Part shown: one piece after another, positions 1 to 34,565 of the stretch
Numbering within the stretch: position 1 is the first letter of the stretch
Layout: each line of letters starts with the position of its first letter
NCBI GenBank assembly: GCA_934183185.1
Contig: CAKPSO010000003.1
Location: forward strand, 3,215 to 67,214
Direction: 5' to 3'
Length of the DNA stretch: 64,000 nt
Source of the DNA: an uncultured Bacilli bacterium
GTDB lineage: Bacteria; Bacillota_I; Bacilli_A; RF39; UBA660
The notes under the pieces: generated by a model
Databases searched by the model: none
Seen by the model: the letters and a program-made list of their open reading frames with translations, nothing else
Told to the model about the DNA's origin: nothing
Position numbers and translations under genes: made by a program

Positions 1-1127
1 CCATTTTCTCCTTTAGTACGAATACCAAGTCTACGAGCTTGAGCATCACCTAGTGTAGAACATGAACCAACTTCAAAATACTTTTTTTGCCTTGGACTCC
101 AAGCTTCTACATCACAAGATTTTACTTTTAAATCAGCTAAATCTCCACTACAGCATTCAAGTGTTCTGACTGGAATATCTAAACTTCTAAAGAATTCTAC
201 TGTATAACTCCACATTTTATTATACCAATCCATTGACTCTTCTGGTTTACATAATACTACCATTTCTTGTTTTTCAAATTGATGAACCCTATATAAACCT
301 CTTTCTTCTATTCCATGTGCTCCAACTTCTTTTCTAAAACATGGTGAATAACTAGTTAAAGTAATTGGTAATTTTGTTTCTGGTACTATCTGCCCTTTAA
401 ATCTACCTATCATAGAATGTTCACTTGTACCTATAAGATATAAATCTTCACCCTCTATTTTATACATCATGGCATCCATTTCTTCAAATGACATAACTCC
501 ATTAACTACATCACTTCTTATCATAAATGGTGGTATACAGTAAGTAAATCCTTTATTGATCATAAAGTCTCTTGCATAAGTAAGCATAGCTGAATGAAGT
601 CTAGCAGCATCACCCATTAAATAATAGAATCCATTACCACTAGTTCTACCAGCACTTTCTTTATCAAGTCCACTAATACTATCTAATATATCAGCGTGAT
701 ATGGAACTTCAAAATCAGGAACTACTGGTTCTCCAAACTTTTCTATTTCTACATTTTCAGAATCATCTTTTCCAACAGGTACAGAGTCATCTATAATATT
801 TGGAATAATCATCATTTTAGCCTTTAAAACCGCTCCCAATTCTGCTTCTTCTTTTTCAATTTCTACTAATCTTTGATTGATTTCCACTACTCTATTCTTT
901 AGTTTTTCAGCCTCTTCCTTCTTGCCTTCTCTCATAAGTTTACCTATTTCACTAGAAGTATTATTTTTCTCACTACGTAAATTATCTCCCTCTAATTTAT
1001 CATTACGTACTTTCTCATCAAGTTCAATTACCTCATCAACAAGTACTAATTTCTGATCTTGAAATTTCTTTTTAATGTTTTCCTTTACTTTATCCTTATT
1101 CTCTCTAACAAACTTAATATCTAACAT
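1..1127 (-). CDS. serS: seryl-tRNA synthetase (C-terminus cut by window edge)
   Basis: Reverse translation begins MLDIKFVRENKDKV (coiled-coil arm) at ATG 1125-1127 and runs to ...YFEVGSCSTLGDAQARRLGIRTKGENG, the class II SerRS motif-3 region. The ORF continues past position 1. Confidence 0.9.
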   Translation of the reverse strand, partial: MLDIKFVRENKDKVKENIKKKFQDQKLVLVDEVIELDEKVRNDKLEGDNLRSEKNNTSSEIGKLMREGKKEEAEKLKNRVVEINQRLVEIEKEEAELGAVLKAKMMIIPNIIDDSVPVGKDDSENVEIEKFGEPVVPDFEVPYHADILDSISGLDKESAGRTSGNGFYYLMGDAARLHSAMLTYARDFMINKGFTYCIPPFMIRSDVVNGVMSFEEMDAMMYKIEGEDLYLIGTSEHSMIGRFKGQIVPETKLPITLTSYSPCFRKEVGAHGIEERGLYRVHQFEKQEMVVLCKPEESMDWYNKMWSYTVEFFRSLDIPVRTLECCSGDLADLKVKSCDVEAWSPRQKKYFEVGSCSTLGDAQARRLGIRTKGEN

Positions 1128-1879
1128 TATATATTCCTTCTTTCTTTTTCATTTTTCAATTTAACTAACTGTTTTCCATACTTTTCTCTAAACCATTCCT
1201 GTTTTTCAAGAGGAAGTTTAACTAACCTATCTTTATCATAATTATTAGTAATATCATTAATCTTTAATCTTAAAGCATTATTATTACCAGAACTAATTAT
1301 AGAATCTATTTCTCTATCATATAATTCTAATTTTTCTGTCTTAGTAAGTTTAGATGTATCAATTAAAGGTTTAGTAACTAAAAATACTACTTCTACAATA
1401 TCTCTAGTAAATCCAACTTCTAATAAGTCCATACAAGTAACATCTGTATCTTCAACTATATCATGTAATAAACCAGCTACCATTACGATATAATTATCTT
1501 CACTATTATTTGTACCACTAGATACACTCTTTAAGTGTTCTATATAAGGATTACCTGATTTATCTTTTATTCCATCAAATACTCTTCTAGTAACTACTGC
1601 CGCCTTTAAGTATAAATCATCACATTCTTTTATTTTTATTAAAGAATCTAAATCAAAATAATCAAGTAAATGATTATCACTAGAAATATTACTATAATCA
1701 TATAAATCAACTATCTTAAATATATTACGAGGAAGAGATAATAAATAAATTCTATTTTTACTACTACTATTAGTAGAACTAGATTCATATATAATCCTAA
1801 TTCCTATTTGTCTAGCTCGCATGCAGTATTCATTCATTCTGTAATAATAACTACCCAAATATAAATTTCTCATAATCAC
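1127..1879 (-). CDS. HD-domain protein resembling RelA/SpoT-type (p)ppGpp hydrolase (small alarmone hydrolase-like) with ~65 aa N-terminal extension
   Basis: Motifs SGNPYIEHL...LLHDIVEDTDVT...VVFLVTK match the RelA/SpoT HD hydrolase domain. Its stop overlaps the serS ATG by 1 nt, so the two are translationally coupled. The likely start is the third ATG (1873). Confidence 0.7.
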   Translation of the reverse strand: MIMRNLYLGSYYYRMNEYCMRARQIGIRIIYESSSTNSSSKNRIYLLSLPRNIFKIVDLYDYSNISSDNHLLDYFDLDSLIKIKECDDLYLKAAVVTRRVFDGIKDKSGNPYIEHLKSVSSGTNNSEDNYIVMVAGLLHDIVEDTDVTCMDLLEVGFTRDIVEVVFLVTKPLIDTSKLTKTEKLELYDREIDSIISSGNNNALRLKINDITNNYDKDRLVKLPLEKQEWFREKYGKQLVKLKNEKERRNI

Positions 1880-1883
1880 ACCC

Positions 1884-2060
1884 TTCGTTAGAAAAAGGAT
1901 GATACCTAAGGAGTCATATAGACGGTACCATCCTTTTATTAACTTAATTTAAATAACGGTATTACCCGGACTCTATTAAAGCCTCTAAGAAAGTAGATTA
2001 AATAGCTTCCAATCTTAGTTTCCACCAGCCACTAAGTCTCTATCAATTTCCACTATTATT
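1884..2060 (-). promoter_or_regulatory. T-box riboswitch leader (probably Ser-responsive) upstream of HD-protein/serS operon
   Basis: The minus-strand transcript contains AAAAGGAUGGUACCGUC (T-box consensus AGGGUGGNACCGCG) at 1921-1937. It forms the 5' arm of a terminator hairpin (GGAUGGUACC...GGUAUCAUCC) followed by UUUUUCU. This sits immediately 5' of the operon start. Specifier codon not assigned with confidence. Confidence 0.65.
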
Positions 2061-2114
2061 AGTTTTCTCATTGATTTACACCACTATTATATGAAAAAAT
2101 AAAATATTTATCAA

Positions 2115-2960
2115 CTATTTTCCATATCTTTTATAAAATTTATCTACTTGACTTATATGTTTTATTTTAGGTTTATCATAACTAGGAGTAATATTAGCTA
2201 CATAAGTACCACTTTTATTATTATATGGATACATCGTAATAATATCATTAGTATTACGTACTGTAACTACATATAAATAATCAACTAATTTACTATCTAC
2301 ATGTCCACAACAGTCATATTTAAATATATAGATATTATCAAAGAAATTACTGTATATTCTACCATCTAATGGTAACAAGTTTCTTAGTTTATAATATACA
2401 TCATTTAAAGGAAAGTTGTAATTAAAGATAGCTGTAGTATCATAATCACTATCAGGCATATGCCTTTCTATATGAGAAATAGCTCTTTCTGAATCATAAG
2501 AAGTAAGCTGTTCTAATAAGTACTTTTCTTTTGTGGATTTATAAGATTTTTCATTACTTTTATTAAGTTTATTTCTAAGAAACATTAAAAATCCTTCGTA
2601 TATCCACATATGATCATAAAATATTTTTATATTATTCATTAATAGTTCATAACACTCATTATATTTTTCTTGACATGAAAGTAGTTTTATCTTAACACGT
2701 AATAATTCGTCCTTTGATAGTTTAGATGTTTTCTCACTTATTTTAGCCATATCTAGTAGCTCACTAGCTTTATCAAAATAACCCTTTTTAATACAAGTTT
2801 CTGCATAATAAGTATAACCACGTAAATCATTAGGATAAAGTTTTATGTAATTATCAAACTGATACATAGCTTCATCTAATCTATATTCTTCAACTAATTT
2901 AATTATTTTAGAAAAATAAGTATTATTAAAGTATTTATTATTTCCTTGCATATAGAACAC
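2115..2960 (-). CDS. hypothetical protein with TPR-like N-terminal region
   Basis: 281 aa ORF. Helical repeat character (YPNDLRGYTYYAETCIKKGYFDKASELL). No recognisable catalytic motif. Confidence 0.5.
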   Translation of the reverse strand: MFYMQGNNKYFNNTYFSKIIKLVEEYRLDEAMYQFDNYIKLYPNDLRGYTYYAETCIKKGYFDKASELLDMAKISEKTSKLSKDELLRVKIKLLSCQEKYNECYELLMNNIKIFYDHMWIYEGFLMFLRNKLNKSNEKSYKSTKEKYLLEQLTSYDSERAISHIERHMPDSDYDTTAIFNYNFPLNDVYYKLRNLLPLDGRIYSNFFDNIYIFKYDCCGHVDSKLVDYLYVVTVRNTNDIITMYPYNNKSGTYVANITPSYDKPKIKHISQVDKFYKRYGK

Positions 2961-3019
2961 CCCTCAAAATTAATTATATATTTTATCATATATTTAATAA
3001 AGTTCAAGAAAAAAAGAGA

Positions 3020-3280
3020 CTAGATAGCCTCTACAATTAGTTTTATTGCTGTTCTTTCCTCTCCATCTATAGTAATATCAGTAAATGCTGGAATACAAAC
3101 TAAATTTTTACCACTTGGTGCTACAAATCCTCTAGCTATAGCTATAGCTTTAATTGCTTGATTTAAAGCTCCAGCTCCAACAGCCTGAATTTCTACACTA
3201 CCCTTCTCACGAAATACGTTAGCTAGGGCTCCTGCTACACTATTGGGATTAGATTTAGATGAAACTTTAAGTGTTTCCAT
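3020..3280 (-). CDS. spoVS: stage V sporulation protein S
   Basis: METLKVSSKSNPNSVAGALANVFREKGSVEIQAVGAGALNQAIKAIAIARGFVAPSGKNLVCIPAFTDITIDGEERTAIKLIVEAI is near-identical to the SpoVS family. The internal Met at 3280 is the conserved start; the ORF track over-extends to 3364. Confidence 0.9.
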   Translation of the reverse strand: METLKVSSKSNPNSVAGALANVFREKGSVEIQAVGAGALNQAIKAIAIARGFVAPSGKNLVCIPAFTDITIDGEERTAIKLIVEAI

Positions 3281-3350
3281 ATTTATTTTATCATTCCTTT
3301 CTACACTTAAGTATATGTAGAAGGCAGAAAAAAAAGACATAAAATTATGT

Positions 3351-4106
3351 CTATAATTCTTCAACTTGTGGTTTAGAAACTTTTTCTACTGGTTTAACTT
3401 CAGGTGTTTCTGAAACTTCTTGACTACTAGTATCAGGTATTTCTACAGGCGCTGCTGGTATTTCAAATGTAAATGGTTGTTGTTGAGTTTCTTCTGTTTC
3501 AGTAGCAACTGGTTTACTTTCTTCAATTTTAGGTATTTCAACTACTGGTTCTTGTACAGGTTCAACAATTTTAATATCATTAATTGCTCCACCATATGGT
3601 ACATGATGTTCTTCCATCTTAGGCAATTTTTGAGTAGCCTCTAATGGATCATTTCCACCATAAATTGTAGGTTTCTTTTCTTCTACTACAGGTATTTCTA
3701 CTTCACTAGGTTTTTCTTCACCATATACAGAAACCATTGTTTGATCTAATTTAGCTTCTTCTACTGGTTTAACTTCAACTTCAGGTAATGTATTAGTTTC
3801 AACTACTGTATTGTCTTCAACTACTGCAGGCTGAACAGTAGGAATATCTTGAACAGTTTCACTAACTTCAGGTTGAGTTTTATCTTCTACTACAGGTTGA
3901 GTACTTGTAACTTGAGTAACAGCTATAGTCTCACTACCATTAGCTTCCTTAGTATTATCTATATCTGACTCTACCTTTTCTTTCTTAGTTCCTTTACTTC
4001 CTGTAATAAATAAGATAAGCGCTACAATTAATAATACAACACCAAGTGATATTAAAATACCAGGAATTGTTGTAAACCAATCTAAACTTAACGCTAAAAT
4101 AAACAT
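3351..4106 (-). CDS. membrane-anchored low-complexity Pro/Glu/Val-rich protein
   Basis: N-terminal TM helix (ILISLGVVLLIVALILFITG), then repetitive PVxE/PEV-rich sequence. Lies immediately upstream of spoVS on the same strand. Confidence 0.5.
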   Translation of the reverse strand: MFILALSLDWFTTIPGILISLGVVLLIVALILFITGSKGTKKEKVESDIDNTKEANGSETIAVTQVTSTQPVVEDKTQPEVSETVQDIPTVQPAVVEDNTVVETNTLPEVEVKPVEEAKLDQTMVSVYGEEKPSEVEIPVVEEKKPTIYGGNDPLEATQKLPKMEEHHVPYGGAINDIKIVEPVQEPVVEIPKIEESKPVATETEETQQQPFTFEIPAAPVEIPDTSSQEVSETPEVKPVEKVSKPQVEEL

Positions 4107-4829: not shown

Positions 4830-5691
4830 CAAATATATATCTCCCTGCAACTCCACATGGTAATACTAAATTACTATTTTCTATTTTTAATCCTATCTCA
4901 TCACAGTCAATAGTACCAGGTAAATCTTTAAAGTGTATTTTATATAAATTAGCTATTATCTCTTTAGATAAACCTGATGAATATGAATTGATTAAAAAGA
5001 ATAATGGCTTATCACTAAGTAACTGTCTACACAATGATACAAATGAATCTAAGTCTTTTAAAATATCCCAAACTTCTCCATTAGCACCTCTACCATAACT
5101 AGGTGGATCCATAATAATAGCATCATAATGATTACCACGTCTAATTTCTCTTCTTACAAACTTAAATACATCATCTACTAAATAACGAATCGGTCTATCT
5201 TTTAGACCACTAACTTCTACATTTTCTTTAGCCCAATCTACCATGCCACGTGATGAATCAACATGTACTACACTAGCTCCTGCTTTTAAACTAGCTACAC
5301 TAGCTCCACCTGTATAAGCAAATAAATTAAGTACTTTGATTTCTCTTTTACTATTCTTTATCTTATCCATTATAAAGTCCCAATTAACAGCTTGTTCTGG
5401 AAATAGACCAGTATGTTTAAATCCCATCTGTTTAATCTTAAATGTTAAATCTTTATAATGTACATTCCAAACACTAGGTGTTTTTTTTATATTTTCCCAG
5501 TGTCCACCACCCTGATTACTACGATAATATACCGCATTAATATTCTTATACTTCTCTTCAAGATTTCCATTATTCCATATTACTTGAGGATCAGGTCTTA
5601 ATAAATTTATATTACCCCAAGACTCTAATTTCATACCATTAGATGCATCTATTATCTTATATTCCTGCCATAAATCAGCTATTTTCATCAT
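4822..5691 (-). CDS. class I SAM-dependent (rRNA) methyltransferase, RlmI/YwbD-like
   Basis: LNLFAYTGGASVASLKAG...VDSS...IIMDPPSYG motifs of Rossmann-fold SAM methyltransferases. Confidence 0.7.
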   Translation of the reverse strand: MMKIADLWQEYKIIDASNGMKLESWGNINLLRPDPQVIWNNGNLEEKYKNINAVYYRSNQGGGHWENIKKTPSVWNVHYKDLTFKIKQMGFKHTGLFPEQAVNWDFIMDKIKNSKREIKVLNLFAYTGGASVASLKAGASVVHVDSSRGMVDWAKENVEVSGLKDRPIRYLVDDVFKFVRREIRRGNHYDAIIMDPPSYGRGANGEVWDILKDLDSFVSLCRQLLSDKPLFFLINSYSSGLSKEIIANLYKIHFKDLPGTIDCDEIGLKIENSNLVLPCGVAGRYIFDE

Positions 5692-15265: not shown

Positions 15266-16012
15266 ATGTTTGAAGATAATAAATGTGAACATAAAAAATA
15301 CTGTGAATTACCAAATGGGTGTTACATAATTGGGCCAACTGGACCTACTGGGCCAAGTGGTGGACCAGTTGGACCTAGAGGAGCTACAGGGCCTACTGGA
15401 CCTCAAGGACCTATAGGAAATACAGGGCCAGCTGGACCTCAAGGAACCCCAGGGGAAGCTGGTTTGATAGGACCTACAGGACCAACCGGACCCACTGGAC
15501 CTACTGGGCCTACTGGGCCAGTAGGATTACAAGGACCAGCAGGATTACAAGGAATCAAAGGTGAACAAGGTCCTACCGGACCTACTGGGCCAAGTGCAGT
15601 AGCAGCTTTTGGACGTAAATATGATAATTCAACAAATACCATAAGTCTAGAAGCTAATATAAATAAAGAAATCCCATTAGGAAGTACTGGACCATCATCA
15701 GGTATTACGACTGGTACCCAAAATGCATTAACTATAGTTGATAATGGTACATATAAAATAGATTATTTCTTTTCTGGATCTACTAGTGCTAATGCCAATG
15801 TAACAGTAGAAATAAGACAAAACACAACACCTATTGGTAGTAGTACTATAATTAAGGATACTACTGCTAATCAAGAAGTAGATTTTATAGGTAGTTCAAT
15901 AAATTCATTTGCAGCTGGAGATAAAATTGGTTTAAGTATAGAATCAACTAGTCAAATCACCGTATCACCATCTTCTGGTACTAGTGCATACCTAAATATA
16001 TATAAACTATAA
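15266..16012 (+). CDS. BclA-like collagen-triplet exosporium protein with C-terminal TNF/C1q-like domain
   Basis: N-terminal [25 protein letters not shown], then ~30 GxT/GPx triplets, then a C-terminal domain with [10 protein letters not shown]...AYLNIYKL resembling the BclA C-terminal domain. Good GGAGG RBS. Confidence 0.8.
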
Positions 16013-20711: not shown

Positions 20712-20841
20712 TAATTAATCACCCTTTAAATTTAAGATTACAAGCACTATCAATTGAAATATTATAGTGATTTGTAGGAGTTACTACAATTACTTATTGT
20801 TATTACTGTTGCATTTACTTTTACAATTCAATATTACTACA

Positions 20842-21162
20842 GATAACGGTACTGAATTTTTTAATTTTTTAAATATTATTAAAGATACAAAAACAAAAAT
20901 ATATTTTTGTCATCCCTATTGTTCTGGCAAAAAAGGTACCAATGAAAGGCACAATGGAATAATAAGATATTTTATTTCTAAAAGTTCTTTGATAGAAAAT
21001 TATTCATATAAAGATATAAACAAAATAGCTGAATGGATGAATAATTACCCAAGAAAAATATTAAATTATAAAACTCCCCTTGAAGCACTTCAAGAAGAGT
21101 TTAACAATAAATCAATTTTAAATAAAATTTATAAATTACAAGAAAAGATAAATTGTTTATAG
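20842..21162 (+). pseudogene. IS30-family transposase C-terminal (DDE) fragment
   Basis: DNGTEFFNF...FCHPYCSGKKGTNERHNGIIRYF...NNYPRKILNYKTPLEAL matches the IS30 DDE C-terminus. The N-terminal two-thirds is missing. Confidence 0.75.
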
Positions 21163-21546: not shown

Positions 21547-22089
21547 TTACATAAAATAAATATTTACTATTTCATTAAATCTATCTAATAATTTATTGTT
21601 TTCCACTCTTGCGTTAAATAATTTTTGCAATTCTAAATGAAACCATTTTAATTCTTCATAACTGTTGCATTCTGTAATAAGTGATTCTTTACCTAATTTT
21701 AAATACATATCATAGTCTGAAATTAAATTTTGCAACTTATCTGCAATTTCTACTATCAAAATATTATTACTAACATTTTTCAAACTTTCAATAAACTTTG
21801 TTTTTCTCTCTATATAATTAGAAATATTTTGATCTTCACTTAATTGCAAAACTCCATTTGCAATTTCTTGTCCATATCTATTTAGCAAATCATCATAATT
21901 ATATTCAGTATCTTCAATAATGTCATGTAAATAACCAATGTATACAGTTGTTTCGTCACAACCAACGTTTTTTAACATGTTTCCAACCATAATACTGTGA
22001 AATGATAAGTCTATATTTTCTTTTTTTCTTTTTAATCCATTAAACGCTTTAAAAACAAAATGTATTATATCTTCTTCTTTTGTATACAT
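21547..22089 (-). CDS. HD-domain protein, second RelA/SpoT-hydrolase-like (small alarmone hydrolase-like) paralog
   Basis: YIGYLHDIIEDTEY and downstream helical region typical of HD hydrolases. 180 aa. Confidence 0.65.
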   Translation of the reverse strand: MYTKEEDIIHFVFKAFNGLKRKKENIDLSFHSIMVGNMLKNVGCDETTVYIGYLHDIIEDTEYNYDDLLNRYGQEIANGVLQLSEDQNISNYIERKTKFIESLKNVSNNILIVEIADKLQNLISDYDMYLKLGKESLITECNSYEELKWFHLELQKLFNARVENNKLLDRFNEIVNIYFM

Positions 22090-22821: not shown

Positions 22822-22887
22822 TCATTTCTAATTGATTCTATATATCAAAGTTCGAATAGTTCGAACAGACTCTCTAGTGGTGCCCGA
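22815..22887. repeat. direct repeat copy B (downstream flank and 3' end of intact tRNA-Leu)
   Basis: Partner of 21375-21446. Confidence 0.7.
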
Positions 22888-22963
22888 AGTCGGACTTGAA
22901 CCGACACGGTATTGCTACCAGTGGATTTTGAGTCCACCGCGTCTACCATTCCACCATTCGGGC
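22878..22963 (-). tRNA. tRNA-Leu (anticodon CAA), type II with long variable arm
   Basis: Minus-strand sequence GCCCGAAUGGUGGAAUGGUAGACGCGGUGGACUCAAAAUCCACUGGUAGCAAUACCGUGUCGGUUCAAGUCCGACUUCGGGCACCA. Acceptor GCCCGAA/UUCGGGC, anticodon loop CUCAAAA, encoded CCA. Confidence 0.9.
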
Positions 22964-23335: not shown

Positions 23336-23515
23336 AGCAACACCTCAATCCCAAAATAAATATATCATGTGTAATGCTATATGTAAACATATTTTATTAA
23401 AACATTATTATTGATATTACATAACACATATTACTTAAAATAATTTAAAAAAAAGATAAAAAAAATGTCCAATTATAAAATAATTGCATATGATGATAAC
23501 AAAGGAGTTTTTGCT

Positions 23516-24082
23516 ATGAATAAAAATAATAATCCTAACTGCTATCCATATTTTCCTGGACCTACTGGGCCAACCGGACCTACAGGATTGCAGGGACCAG
23601 CTGGTATTCAAGGGCCACAAGGTGAACAAGGGCCAACTGGTCCAACAGGTCCTGCAGCAACAAATCCGGCCACATTTGCCTATAAATATAACGACGAGGG
23701 TACAGAATTAAACCTAACAGCCAATAAAACAGATAAAATTGCCTTAAGTATTGCTGGAGAAGCTTCTGGAATATCAGTAACACTAGAAAATAGTATGGTA
23801 ATAAATAGTTATGGAACTTATAAAATAGAATACTTTTTTTCTGGATCAGCTGATAAAAACGTTGGTATAGTAACAGAAGTAGAAGTCAATGACATATCAG
23901 TAAATGGATCAGAAATAAGTAAAGATGTAACTGCTAATAATGAAGCAGATTTTCACGGAATCACAGTAGCAGTTCTTAACCCTTTAGATACAATCTATTT
24001 AGGTATAAGAGCTAATCAAGATACAGTAGTAACACCAGCACCAGATGTAAACGCTTACTTAATTCTAACTAAACTATCTTAA
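23516..24082 (+). CDS. BclA-like collagen-triplet exosporium protein (third paralog)
   Basis: [30 protein letters not shown]... then a C-terminal domain with [10 protein letters not shown]...AYLILTKLS paralogous to 15266-16012. AAAGGAG RBS 8 nt before the ATG at 23516. Confidence 0.8.
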
Positions 24083-26696: not shown

Positions 26697-27047
26697 CTAA
26701 TTTTTTGGTTTAAAAAATAATGTAAAAATAAAAGTAAATACTATAGCTGCCGTAATACCAGAAGCAGTTAAATCAAACATTCCCATCAAAAGTCCCATAA
26801 TTCCCATATCACTTGCTTTAGCCAAAGCCCCATGGATTAATGAATGACCAAAACTAGTAATTGGTACCAACGCTCCTGCTCCTACGTAATTAATAATTTG
26901 ATCATATATACTAAAAGTATCCAAGAAAGATCCTACTACAACAAATATACTAGTAATATGACCCGCAGATAATTTAGTATTATCTAAAATAATTTGGCCT
27001 ATTAAACAAATAAGTCCACAAAACAAGAATGAATTTATATATATCAT
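26697..27047 (-). CDS. spoVAE: stage V sporulation protein AE (SpoVAEB-type)
   Basis: 116 aa membrane protein, paralogous to the SpoVAC fold, third gene of the spoVA operon. Confidence 0.85.
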   Translation of the reverse strand: MIYINSFLFCGLICLIGQIILDNTKLSAGHITSIFVVVGSFLDTFSIYDQIINYVGAGALVPITSFGHSLIHGALAKASDMGIMGLLMGMFDLTASGITAAIVFTFIFTLFFKPKN

Positions 27048-28042
27048 TATTTAATAACCTCCAAACTAACAGCATGAGCAATACTCAAAATATTTTCATG
27101 TTGAAATACCATTGTAGGAGAAAATAAAGCACCTGTTGCTACTAATAATACTTTTTTAATTTTCTTTTTTCTAAGCATTTCCATTATTAAACTATAATTA
27201 ACTAAAGCACTACATACTGGTCCAGAGCCACCCGCTAATACTTCTTTTTGGGTTTCTAAATCATAAAGCATAACGCCACAATCATTATAATTACTACTAA
27301 TATCTATTCCATATTCAGTCTTCATAAAATCTATTAGGATTTCTTTTCCATATAATCCTAAGTCCCCTGTTAATATAAGATCATAGTAACTAGGTTCTCT
27401 ATTCATATCCTTCAAATGTCTATAAATAGTATCAGCTGCAGCTGGTGCCATAACACTACCCATATTAAGAGGATCAGTTTGATTATAATCAAGTATTCTT
27501 CCAATAGTTGAACTTTCTACTTTAATTCCCGTGTTTTCTAAAGTAAGTAACATACTAGCTCCACCAGTAGCTGTAAATGTAGCTGTTTTAGGTTTAGGAG
27601 CTCCATACTCTGTTGGATTACGAAATTGCTTTTCACTAGACATATTATGGGAAGAAGTTGAAGTAATAACATTTTTAACTTTACCACTATCAATCAAACT
27701 ACTTCCTAAAATAATTCCCTCAATACTAGTAGCACAGGCACTATAAATACCCAAAAAAGGAAAATTAAATTTTTCAGATGAATAACATGAAGAAGTAATT
27801 TGATTCATTAAATCACCCGATATAATAACATCTATATCTTCTTTATTTTTTTTAGCTTTCTTTAAAACTAAACTAATACTTTCTTCTAATACTTTAGCTT
27901 CTGCCGTCTCCCATGATTTTTCACCATTATATAAATTATCAAATGTCTTATCAAAATACTTTTTCAAAGGTCCCTTTGCCTCATATGGTCCAGCTACAGT
28001 ACTAGTTTCATCCACAAATACATTTTTATATTCAAAAGTCAT
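27047..28042 (-). CDS. spoVAD: stage V sporulation protein AD
   Basis: 331 aa thiolase/KAS-like fold (GIYSACATSIEGII, GGSGPVCSA) typical of SpoVAD. Confidence 0.9.
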   Translation of the reverse strand: MTFEYKNVFVDETSTVAGPYEAKGPLKKYFDKTFDNLYNGEKSWETAEAKVLEESISLVLKKAKKNKEDIDVIISGDLMNQITSSCYSSEKFNFPFLGIYSACATSIEGIILGSSLIDSGKVKNVITSTSSHNMSSEKQFRNPTEYGAPKPKTATFTATGGASMLLTLENTGIKVESSTIGRILDYNQTDPLNMGSVMAPAAADTIYRHLKDMNREPSYYDLILTGDLGLYGKEILIDFMKTEYGIDISSNYNDCGVMLYDLETQKEVLAGGSGPVCSALVNYSLIMEMLRKKKIKKVLLVATGALFSPTMVFQHENILSIAHAVSLEVIK

Positions 28043-34249: not shown

Positions 34250-34565
34250 ACCACTCTCTAAAGTTATTATAACACGAGAAAAGATAGAATACTAAAAACT
34301 TAAAAAACTACAAGAAAAAAGTGTCAAATGACACTAATTTACTTATTAAAATAGTTTTATCTAAAGTATTTATATCTATCTTCTAGTTTAACCATTTTTT
34401 ACAATGTAGCCTTATAATAAGTTTCTGTTCGTTAGCCCTCGATTTTGTCCCACACTTCCTTTAGCCCCAATATCACTATTGATGCTTTGTGCTTCCCTAA
34501 CACTTCGTCGATACCTACGCGTGTATTGGACTTTCACCAACTAGATATATGCCATGCACGACATA
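34250..34565 (-). promoter_or_regulatory. structured 5' leader with intrinsic attenuator hairpin upstream of P-type ATPase (candidate metal-responsive riboswitch, class unassigned)
   Basis: Locally GC-enriched ~150 nt block (34420-34560) with GUUAGG...GGGCUAAC closing pair. Then AGUGUCAUUUGACACU hairpin plus UUUUUUCUU at 34312-34336, about 70 nt 5' of the ATG. Confidence 0.45.

Follow-up and report, generated by a model that had tools for sequence, protein, structure and literature searches.

We find that the first 2,114 nucleotides of a 64,000-nucleotide stretch of DNA from an uncultured Bacilli bacterium (GTDB lineage RF39; UBA660; positions 3,215 to 67,214 of contig CAKPSO010000003.1, assembly GCA_934183185.1; hereafter the window) carry, on the minus strand, a T-box leader with a serine specifier, a gene for an HD-domain hydrolase, and serS, the gene for seryl-tRNA synthetase (SerRS). 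We regard the riboswitch and the two-gene operon behind it as real with very little doubt. The leader probably responds to tRNA-Ser and, through a single mRNA with translational coupling, co-induces the hydrolase and SerRS. The hydrolase is a member of the RelA/SpoT superfamily that most closely resembles the (p)ppApp hydrolase Aph1 in both sequence and fold.

A serine T-box leader in front of a two-gene operon

All elements of interest lie on the minus strand between window positions 1 and 2114 (Table 1). The 235-nt stretch upstream of the HD gene begins with a sigma-70-type promoter that matches at 11 of 12 positions and gives the top promoter-like score within window positions 1-3400; its -35 and -10 hexamers are invariant among orthologous leaders in the leader alignment. 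A scan of the HD gene/serS operon for internal promoters gave none better than random. Judged from the sequence, the HD gene likely starts at the ATG at 1873, 7 nt past the GAAGGG ribosome-binding site (RBS), rather than at the GTG at 1879. Its stop codon shares one base with the serS start (ATG 1127-1125), as read directly from the TAATG at 1129-1125. The downstream open reading frame (ORF) is identified as serS because it encodes both the Seryl_tRNA_N and the class-II core domains; it runs off the start of the window, and 428-aa homologs are 100% identical across the 375 residues that the window encodes. A first-pass annotation, made by a model from the sequence alone, had described this layout correctly: it had placed a T-box leader before an HD gene whose stop overlaps the serS ATG, and had named two HD motifs, LLHDIVEDTDVT and SGNPYIEHL, both of which are encoded by the minus-strand ORF 1127..1879.

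Table 1. Coordinates of the features discussed, in window numbering.
Feature	Coordinates	Strand	Details
Sigma-70-type promoter	2086..2114	-	-35 TTGATA 2114-2109; 17-nt spacer; -10 TATAAT 2091-2086
T-box leader RNA	1890..2080	-	Stem I, short Stem II, Stem IIA/B-like element, no Stem III, antiterminator/terminator
Stem I distal platform	2014..2041	-	AGAGA bulge 2041-2037; helix CUUAG/CUAAG; distal loop UGGCUGGUGGAAA 2031-2019
Specifier loop, 3' side (UAA-UCU-A)	1994..2000	-	UCU (Ser) 1997-1995, then purine A 1994
T-box sequence and antiterminator	1908..1936	-	AAGGA (UGGUACC bulge) GUC-UAUAU-GAC UCCUU
Intrinsic terminator	1892..1937	-	AAAAGGAUGGUACC (1937-1924) / GGUAUCAUCCUUUU (1906-1893); 14 bp, one G.U; 17-nt loop; U-run 1896-1892
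HD-domain pyrophosphohydrolase gene, Aph1-like, 248 aa	1127..1873	-	RBS GAAGGG 1886-1881; stop TAA 1129-1127
N-terminal mini-domain, residues 1-~62, beta-alpha-beta-beta-alpha	1688..1873	-	Putative remnant of a nucleoside 2'-deoxyribosyltransferase-like domain
serS, seryl-tRNA synthetase, first 375 codons	1..1127	-	Seryl_tRNA_N 4.7e-23, tRNA-synt_2b 7.6e-29 (Pfam)
Second HD protein, RelA/SpoT-homolog type, 180 aa	21547-22089	-	Pfam HD_4 33.5 bits, above gathering score

The full Rfam T-box model, RF00230 (positions 1-219), aligns to 2080..1906 with 53.7 bits (E 6e-11) in a local scan, and all diagnostic parts of a T-box leader are present. In addition to the GA motif, the AGAGA bulge and the distal loop of Stem I align with the conserved AGAGA and GgUUGGUGaaA positions of RF00230, and the CUUAG/CUAAG helix between them is 100% paired, with three covarying pairs. 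The T-box sequence of the window leader is AAAGGAUGGUACCGUC; AGGAUGGUACCG does not vary among 15 leaders. When the window leader and one high-scoring ortholog are aligned to the Rfam model, UCU falls in the slot of the codon in both, with A as the next base. AAUCU is invariant across the 15 leaders, and relatives carry the canonical GAA-UCU-A. The UCU specifier, together with serS downstream, therefore makes the leader serine-specific, which fits the earlier prediction that it senses uncharged tRNA(Ser). We note that the related loci L082 and L096-L101 carry C instead of the usual purine after the UCU specifier (GAA-UCU-C; leader alignment A7, column ~102).

The antiterminator and the terminator are mutually exclusive because both use the bases of the T-box sequence. 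A transcript ending before the 3' arm of the terminator adopts the antiterminator as its minimum free energy fold (dG -5.1 kcal/mol), while addition of the next 19 nt leads to the 14-bp AAAAGGAUGGUACC/GGUAUCAUCCUUUU hairpin, with a dG of -20 kcal/mol and a z of -5.17; 0 of 200 shuffles fold equally well. The first-pass annotation had already assigned AAAAGGAUGGUACC to the 5' arm of a terminator hairpin, and its pairing with GGUAUCAUCCUUUU, followed by a U-run, bears this out. Since the T-box sequence is itself the 5' arm of the terminator, the 3' arm of the terminator and the tRNA acceptor end would compete for the bulge bases. In the textbook T-box, the 5' arm of the terminator is instead the 3' strand of the antiterminator. 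A terminator of matching design is found in L081, L082, L083 and L087. In the short-form clade L091-L094 (L091 leader at ~4940-5000), a 9-bp helix, AAGACUAAU/AUUAGUCUU, is predicted as the terminator; its arms lie on either side of the antiterminator, and it involves no competition for T-box bases. Translational control, through sequestration of the Shine-Dalgarno sequence by the CUCCU strand, was considered and set aside, as this pairing comprises only 5 bp over a 29-nt loop.

Relatives were gathered by tracing homologs of the HD protein to their contigs and by a metagenome scan with an alignment of the C-terminal part only. An earlier form of the contig scan, with the whole-family alignment, was discarded: it caught the generic LLHDIVED pattern and returned distant HD genes of the RelA/SpoT homolog (RSH) type and others, and no close relatives. 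All HD homologs that share 48% or more identity with the window protein have a T-box match directly 5' of their gene, scoring 41-99.7 bits, and seven of these orthologous leaders lie above the Rfam gathering score (L093/L094, 99.7; L099, 95.9; L100, 94.6; L096/L097, 94.1; L101, 93.5). The order T-box, HD gene, serS is kept in 21 of 22 related loci at this level of identity, and in 24 of 25 when the loci with a degenerate HD gene, L106-108, are added; the synteny spans L081-L101 and L106-108. Where both boundaries were called, the HD/serS junction in relatives is a 1-4-nt overlap or a 2-nt gap. The HD-serS adjacency is not seen in L090, whose contig stops at the HD stop codon, and in L102, where a TatD-like gene comes next. 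In the latter locus (positions 1-1650), the contig end cuts into the T-box, the HD gene is of the window type (245 aa) with a C-terminus altered past KYGNN, and serS is missing; the locus is either a rearrangement or a case in which the T-box now controls the hydrolase alone.

The leader is also conserved as a structure. With the Rfam-derived structure imposed on the 15 aligned leaders, 74.8% of cells are paired, compared with 45-56% when the 3' partners are slid, and 16 pairs are changed on both sides, a level of covariation that 0 of 500 shuffles reach. The helices of Stem I are 84-100% paired, with compensatory changes. The antiterminator helix scores poorly in this test because MAFFT misaligns its columns; it is clear in individual sequences. 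Automatic folding of the alignment with RNAalifold did not recover the T-box architecture, and the Rfam-derived structure was used instead. Among 20 other Firmicutes loci with distant Aph-like genes, no T-box lies in front of the gene, the single divergent T-box in this set, at L007, being oriented away from the HD gene. The pairing of T-box and Aph-like gene is thus confined to the clade of the window.

The HD protein, its likely substrate and its N-terminal mini-domain

Residues 101-228 of the HD protein match the RelA/SpoT hydrolase part of TIGR00691 (NCBIfam, E 1.6e-13); Pfam HD_4 stays below threshold. The top PDB sequence match is 7smg, a '(p)ppApp hydrolase' (E 2e-9), followed by Rel, SpoT and Mesh1. 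These matches place the protein within the RelA/SpoT-hydrolase superfamily, as had been proposed, and not with the HD-GYP or YfbR families. The AlphaFold (AF2) model of the 248-aa protein, with a predicted local distance difference test (pLDDT) score of 92, superimposes on 7smg with a template modelling (TM) score of 0.88 and a root-mean-square deviation (rmsd) of 2.3 A at 30% identity, whereas Mesh1, RelH and PaSAH reach TM scores of 0.55-0.64. The model of a long-form relative ranks the structures alike, 7smg giving TM 0.84-0.88 and rmsd 2.2-2.6 A over both models.

The structure 7smg is that of Aph1, the signature of which comprises D24, R96, D116, R119, K133 and Y134 (Ahmad et al. 2023, PMC10083569). 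All 12 Aph homologs assayed hydrolyse ppApp, two of them with modest ppGpp activity as well, and a D24R/R119A double mutant of Aph1 gains ppGpp activity (PMC10083569). By phmmer and MAFFT, the equivalent residues of the window protein are D104, S191, D213, R216, K231 and Y232. Five of the six signature residues are thus kept, including both specificity residues (D24, now D104; R119, now R216). In particular, D104 (K-D104-K-S-G) replaces the guanine-stacking Arg of Rel enzymes (TtRel R43/R44; 'RKSG' motif). The metal ligands H113, H137-D138 and D207 are present together with the E141-D142 dyad, N211 is also conserved, and the catalytic residues are invariant across homologs save for D138, which is nearly so. 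In the alignment of 28 clade members, which share 44-74% identity, the metal ligand H213, the HD-motif H233, the ED dyad and the D-K, R and Y of the signature are invariant, and D234 is found in all but one. Because Aph1 is nearest in sequence and fold, five of the six signature residues are kept and D104 replaces the Arg, we lean towards hydrolysis of adenosine-3'-pyrophosphate, and not of (p)ppGpp, as the most likely activity predicted from the sequence and the model.

A second HD protein of the RSH type is encoded 20 kb from the serS operon (Table 1). Among PDB entries it best matches canonical small alarmone hydrolases (SAHs; 7qoe, 4yf1), with Aph1 as the weakest match, and it reads K-R-K where the protein of the serS operon reads K-D-K. 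The presence of this separate, canonical SAH-like gene supports an Aph-type, rather than a (p)ppGpp, role for the operon protein. The SAH-like gene is flanked by an IS30 transposase fragment (20767-21162, plus strand) and a tRNA-Leu(CAA) gene (22878-22963, minus strand).

Homologs of the operon HD protein come in three architectures: an HD core only (~180 aa), a long form of 330-345 aa with a ~150-aa N-terminal domain, and the window type of ~245 aa. The first ~30 and the next ~30 residues of the window protein align with the two ends of the long-form N-terminal domain, the middle of which, including the GGATFLEMYD segment, is missing. The long-form domain has no match in Pfam and no PDB match by sequence profile; in Foldseek, its AF2 model (pLDDT 92) resembles nucleoside 2'-deoxyribosyltransferases (NDTs) and BcmB, with E ~1e-3 and TM ~0.5. 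We take the GGATFLEMYD segment to resemble the catalytic-Glu motif of the NDT family. The mini-domain of the window protein is itself modelled confidently (pLDDT ~90) and is conserved in L081, L082 and L096-L102, the SerRS proteins of which are ~72% identical over full-length matches. Judged from these alignments and models, the mini-domain is a stable derivative of the NDT-like domain and not a de novo extension. The ~65-aa N-terminal extension that the first-pass annotation had called novel is therefore real, and conserved in a subclade, but it is homologous to the ends of an NDT-like domain that sister lineages carry at full length.

An exhaustive HMMER search returned 50 clusters at E <= 1e-30, as well as stand-alone proteins that match the N-terminal domain only. 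The latter are ~110-190 aa long (P0189, P0204, P0206, P0222, P0226 and P0232) and have no significant Pfam match as stand-alone N-domain proteins; in P0232, the domain is fused to a CobU kinase domain. On a 938-nt ENA contig, the first ~60 residues of a window-type HD protein (98% identical) are joined to the C-terminus of a HAD-type hydrolase (P0042), which represents either a strain-level rearrangement or an assembly chimera. An ORF upstream of the T-box in short-form loci was considered as a split-off NDT-like domain and ruled out on testing.

Proposed regulation and competing explanations

In the scheme we propose, charged tRNA-Ser would allow the 14-bp terminator to form, and transcription would end at the U-run near 1892. 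Uncharged tRNA-Ser would base-pair with the leader at two places, through its anticodon at the UCU of Stem I and through its free NCCA end at the UGGU within the 7-nt bulge. Binding of the tRNA would stabilise the antiterminator, which is weak on its own (-5 kcal/mol), and would also occupy bases needed by the 3' arm of the terminator, so that RNA polymerase would read through and the HD enzyme and SerRS would be made from a single mRNA. The HD enzyme would then strip the 3'-pyrophosphate, converting (p)ppApp to ATP/ADP and PPi, rather than act on (p)ppGpp. Falling charging of Ser-tRNA would in this way bring about more SerRS together with the clearance of an adenosine alarmone or by-product that ties up the ATP pool, and clearance of ppApp would return adenine nucleotides while charging is limiting. 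The co-induction of an HD hydrolase with serS, as suggested in the first-pass annotation, is supported by the tight, clade-conserved two-gene operon behind the serine T-box, but the hydrolase does not appear to be of the (p)ppGpp type.

Several observations weigh against this scheme or parts of it. No T-box match in the window reaches the Rfam gathering score (93 bits for RF00230), a low score that results from the absence of Stem III and the shortness of Stem II. Bacterial tRNA-Ser usually carries G73, which would form a G.U pair with the UGGU bulge, and the window holds no tRNA-Ser gene to compare with that bulge. In the HD protein, R96 of the Aph signature is not conserved (S191), the D213 position is Asn in many clade members, and, compared with Aph1, proteins of the clade have 11 aa inserted. 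Among ~45 window ORFs, no (p)ppApp synthetase, RSH synthetase or toxic small alarmone synthetase (toxSAS) is found. In favour of the scheme, housekeeping small alarmone synthetase activity yields ppApp in Firmicutes (PMC7492591).

The fate of the HD gene within the clade also counts against a strict link. SerRS searches place the window with well-sampled gut metagenome-assembled genomes labelled Tenericutes/Mycoplasmatota or Bacilli. In the closest relative found (L109/L110, positions 2737-3003; SerRS 92% identical), the serine T-box is followed by serS with no HD gene in between; the 3' end of the window HD gene is still recognisable in the ~20 nt that precede the serS ATG, with 15 of 16 positions matching, which suggests a clean deletion. 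In L106-108 (positions 2450-3007; SerRS 88.5% identical), a very abundant human-gut lineage, a 185-aa HD ORF still overlaps serS. Its product is 35% identical to the window protein and has ED replaced by YS, DK by NE, R216 by N and K204 by M; judged from these changes, it may be a pseudoenzyme or the product of a decaying gene. We therefore consider that the HD-serS partnership was present in the ancestor of the clade and is maintained by purifying selection in most of its lineages, yet is dispensable, since the HD gene is absent in L109/L110 and catalytically degenerate in L106-108. For the same reason, the 'hard-wiring' of alarmone turnover to tRNA charging that had been claimed is overstated.

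The first-pass annotation saw in the HD protein a (p)ppGpp/pGpp SAH, in which case deacylation of Ser-tRNA would raise (p)ppGpp turnover along with SerRS. Such a role would agree with the superfamily assignment and the Rel, SpoT and Mesh1 matches, with the presence of every catalytic residue common to (p)ppGpp hydrolases, with the Ser at the position of TtRel S45 (DKSG), and with the modest ppGpp activity of two of the 12 assayed Aph homologs (PMC10083569). However, D104 stands in place of the guanine-stacking Arg, R216 fills the space needed for guanine O6, the fold and sequence are nearer to Aph1 (TM 0.88 versus at most 0.64), and the window has a separate SAH-like gene of the R-K type at 21547-22089; we thus consider this role unlikely. 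Class II aminoacyl-tRNA synthetases (aaRSs), SerRS included, make Ap4A, which counts in favour of yet another kind of substrate, namely other 3'-(pyro)phosphorylated adenosine compounds such as NADPH (a MESH1 substrate), pAp/PAPS (3'-phosphoadenosine-5'-phosphosulfate), or the SerRS side-products ApppGpp and Ap4A derivatives. Here MESH1 structures with NADPH and PAPS (5vxa, 9chy) are among the fold matches, promiscuity of SAHs is reported (PMC9765508), and SasA expression raises ppApp and AppppA in B. subtilis (PMC7492591). The match to Aph1 is nonetheless far better than that to MESH1, and a substrate of this kind seems very improbable.

A further explanation would direct the same chemistry at tRNA: the enzyme would repair tRNA by removing the 3'-pyrophosphate that a toxSAS places on the terminal adenosine (CCA-pp), and so restore the substrates of SerRS. 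MESH1 and ATfaRel are able to reverse CCA pyrophosphorylation and restore aminoacylation, and toxSAS are known in gut Bacilli, as in the case of Coprobacillus FaRel2 (bioRxiv 10.1101/2021.04.30.441581). The modified end is an adenosine 3'-pyrophosphate, which fits the adenosine-type signature, and the gene stands next to an aaRS gene and behind a riboswitch that senses the 3' end of the tRNA. We give tRNA repair only a slim chance, as no toxSAS is present among the window ORFs, the HD protein is without a tRNA-binding domain, and the literature searched showed no test of Aph1-family proteins on tRNA; moreover, the T-box would probably take a pyrophosphorylated 3' end for a 'charged' one, which would blur the induction logic. 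The HD gene could finally be a passenger without a functional link specific to serine, an ancestral and decaying insertion between the T-box and serS that is kept mainly for the serS RBS and the translational coupling in its 3' end. The apparent deletion in L109/L110, with the HD 3' end retained before the serS ATG, would be expected of such a gene, as would the loss of ED, DK and R216 in L106-108 from an ORF that stays open and overlaps serS, and the repeated truncation or loss of the N-terminal domain. Against this stand the invariance of the catalytic and signature residues across the 28 clade members in spite of their divergence, the conservation of the mini-domain as well, and the persistence in L102 of the T-box-HD pair without serS, and the passenger explanation likewise has little probability.

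Relation to known systems and significance

Neither part of the system is of a new family: the leader is a T-box, and the hydrolase falls within the Aph1 branch of the RSH hydrolases. T-box riboswitches control aaRS genes, amino-acid biosynthesis and transport. The window leader has in common with the Firmicutes aaRS leaders of RF00230 a Stem I with GA motif, specifier loop, AGAGA and distal loop, the UGGNACC bulge, a competing terminator and a specifier that matches the aaRS. It differs from them in its missing Stem III, its short Stem II and a first regulated gene that is not amino-acid-related. With Aph1 of Bacteroides caccae (7smg), the HD protein shares the small helical HD fold, the H...HD...D metal site, the ED dyad and equivalents of D24, D116, R119, K133 and Y134. 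Aph1 itself is a 149-aa, prophage-linked immunity protein that adjoins a (p)ppApp-synthetase toxin (PMC10083569), whereas the window protein has the N-terminal mini-domain and the 11-aa insertion, is without R96, and is encoded in a T-box-controlled operon with serS. The SAHs and the hydrolase domain of Rel/SpoT (Mesh1 3nqw/5vxa, RelH 7qod, PaSAH 6yvc, RelSeq 1vj7) are of the same superfamily and have the same catalytic residues; the window protein is set apart from them by the TM scores of 0.55-0.64, by Asp104 in place of the guanine-contacting Arg, and by R216. The fold of NDTs and of the CMP N-glycosidase BcmB (8pqr, 4jen) is weakly matched by the N-terminal ~150 aa of the long form, of which the window protein keeps ~60 aa, the first beta-alpha-beta and the last segment, without the Glu motif.

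In the searchable literature we found nothing that joins a T-box with an SAH or with ppApp, in agreement with the remark of the first-pass annotation that such a pairing had not been seen described, and searches on alarmone hydrolases and SerRS returned unrelated papers only. The Aph1 paper gives a generic neighbourhood association with 'translation' and mentions neither tRNA nor riboswitches (PMC10083569). An RSH-superfamily hydrolase at the head of a T-box/aaRS operon, the NDT-like-Aph fusion and its reduced mini-domain form all appear to be undescribed in the searchable literature.

Elsewhere in the window, SpoVAD (27047-28042), SpoVS (3020-3364) and penicillin-binding proteins (PBPs) are encoded. 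An ORF at 15266-16012 (plus strand) has collagen repeats and a BclA C-terminal domain, and one at 23465-24082 (plus strand) gives weak matches to collagen-like adhesins. From its gene content the organism looks like a spore-former, though the nearest SerRS proteins are labelled Tenericutes/Mycoplasmatota. An Rfam match to group-II-D1D4-3 at 34368-34482 (minus strand; 59 bits, gathering score 32) sits within the 367 nt that separate the genes of a P-type ATPase and a PBP5-like protein, a gap too short for a complete intron.

A more far-reaching proposal, which we hold to be quite unlikely, is that in this clade of gut Bacilli impaired charging of tRNA-Ser normally yields an adenosine-3'-pyrophosphate signal or lesion, either free (p)ppApp or a pyrophosphorylated CCA end, and that its removal is wired by the riboswitch to the induction of SerRS. 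If this were true, the Aph-like protein would be a dedicated partner of an aaRS and the first T-box-regulated member of the RelA/SpoT superfamily, and the ancestral fusion to an NDT-like nucleotide N-glycosidase domain would suggest that the nucleotide is degraded completely. The repeated decay of the HD gene is a warning that the T-box-HD-serS link is not essential. It was only in 2023 that (p)ppApp hydrolases were defined, and their known role is toxin immunity; an Aph-like enzyme under the control of tRNA-Ser charging would offer a testable context for a housekeeping metabolism of (p)ppApp and adenosine-3'-pyrophosphate. The full-length NDT-Aph fusions, mini-domain forms, HD-only forms, catalytically dead forms and clean deletions provide natural comparison sets for genetics.

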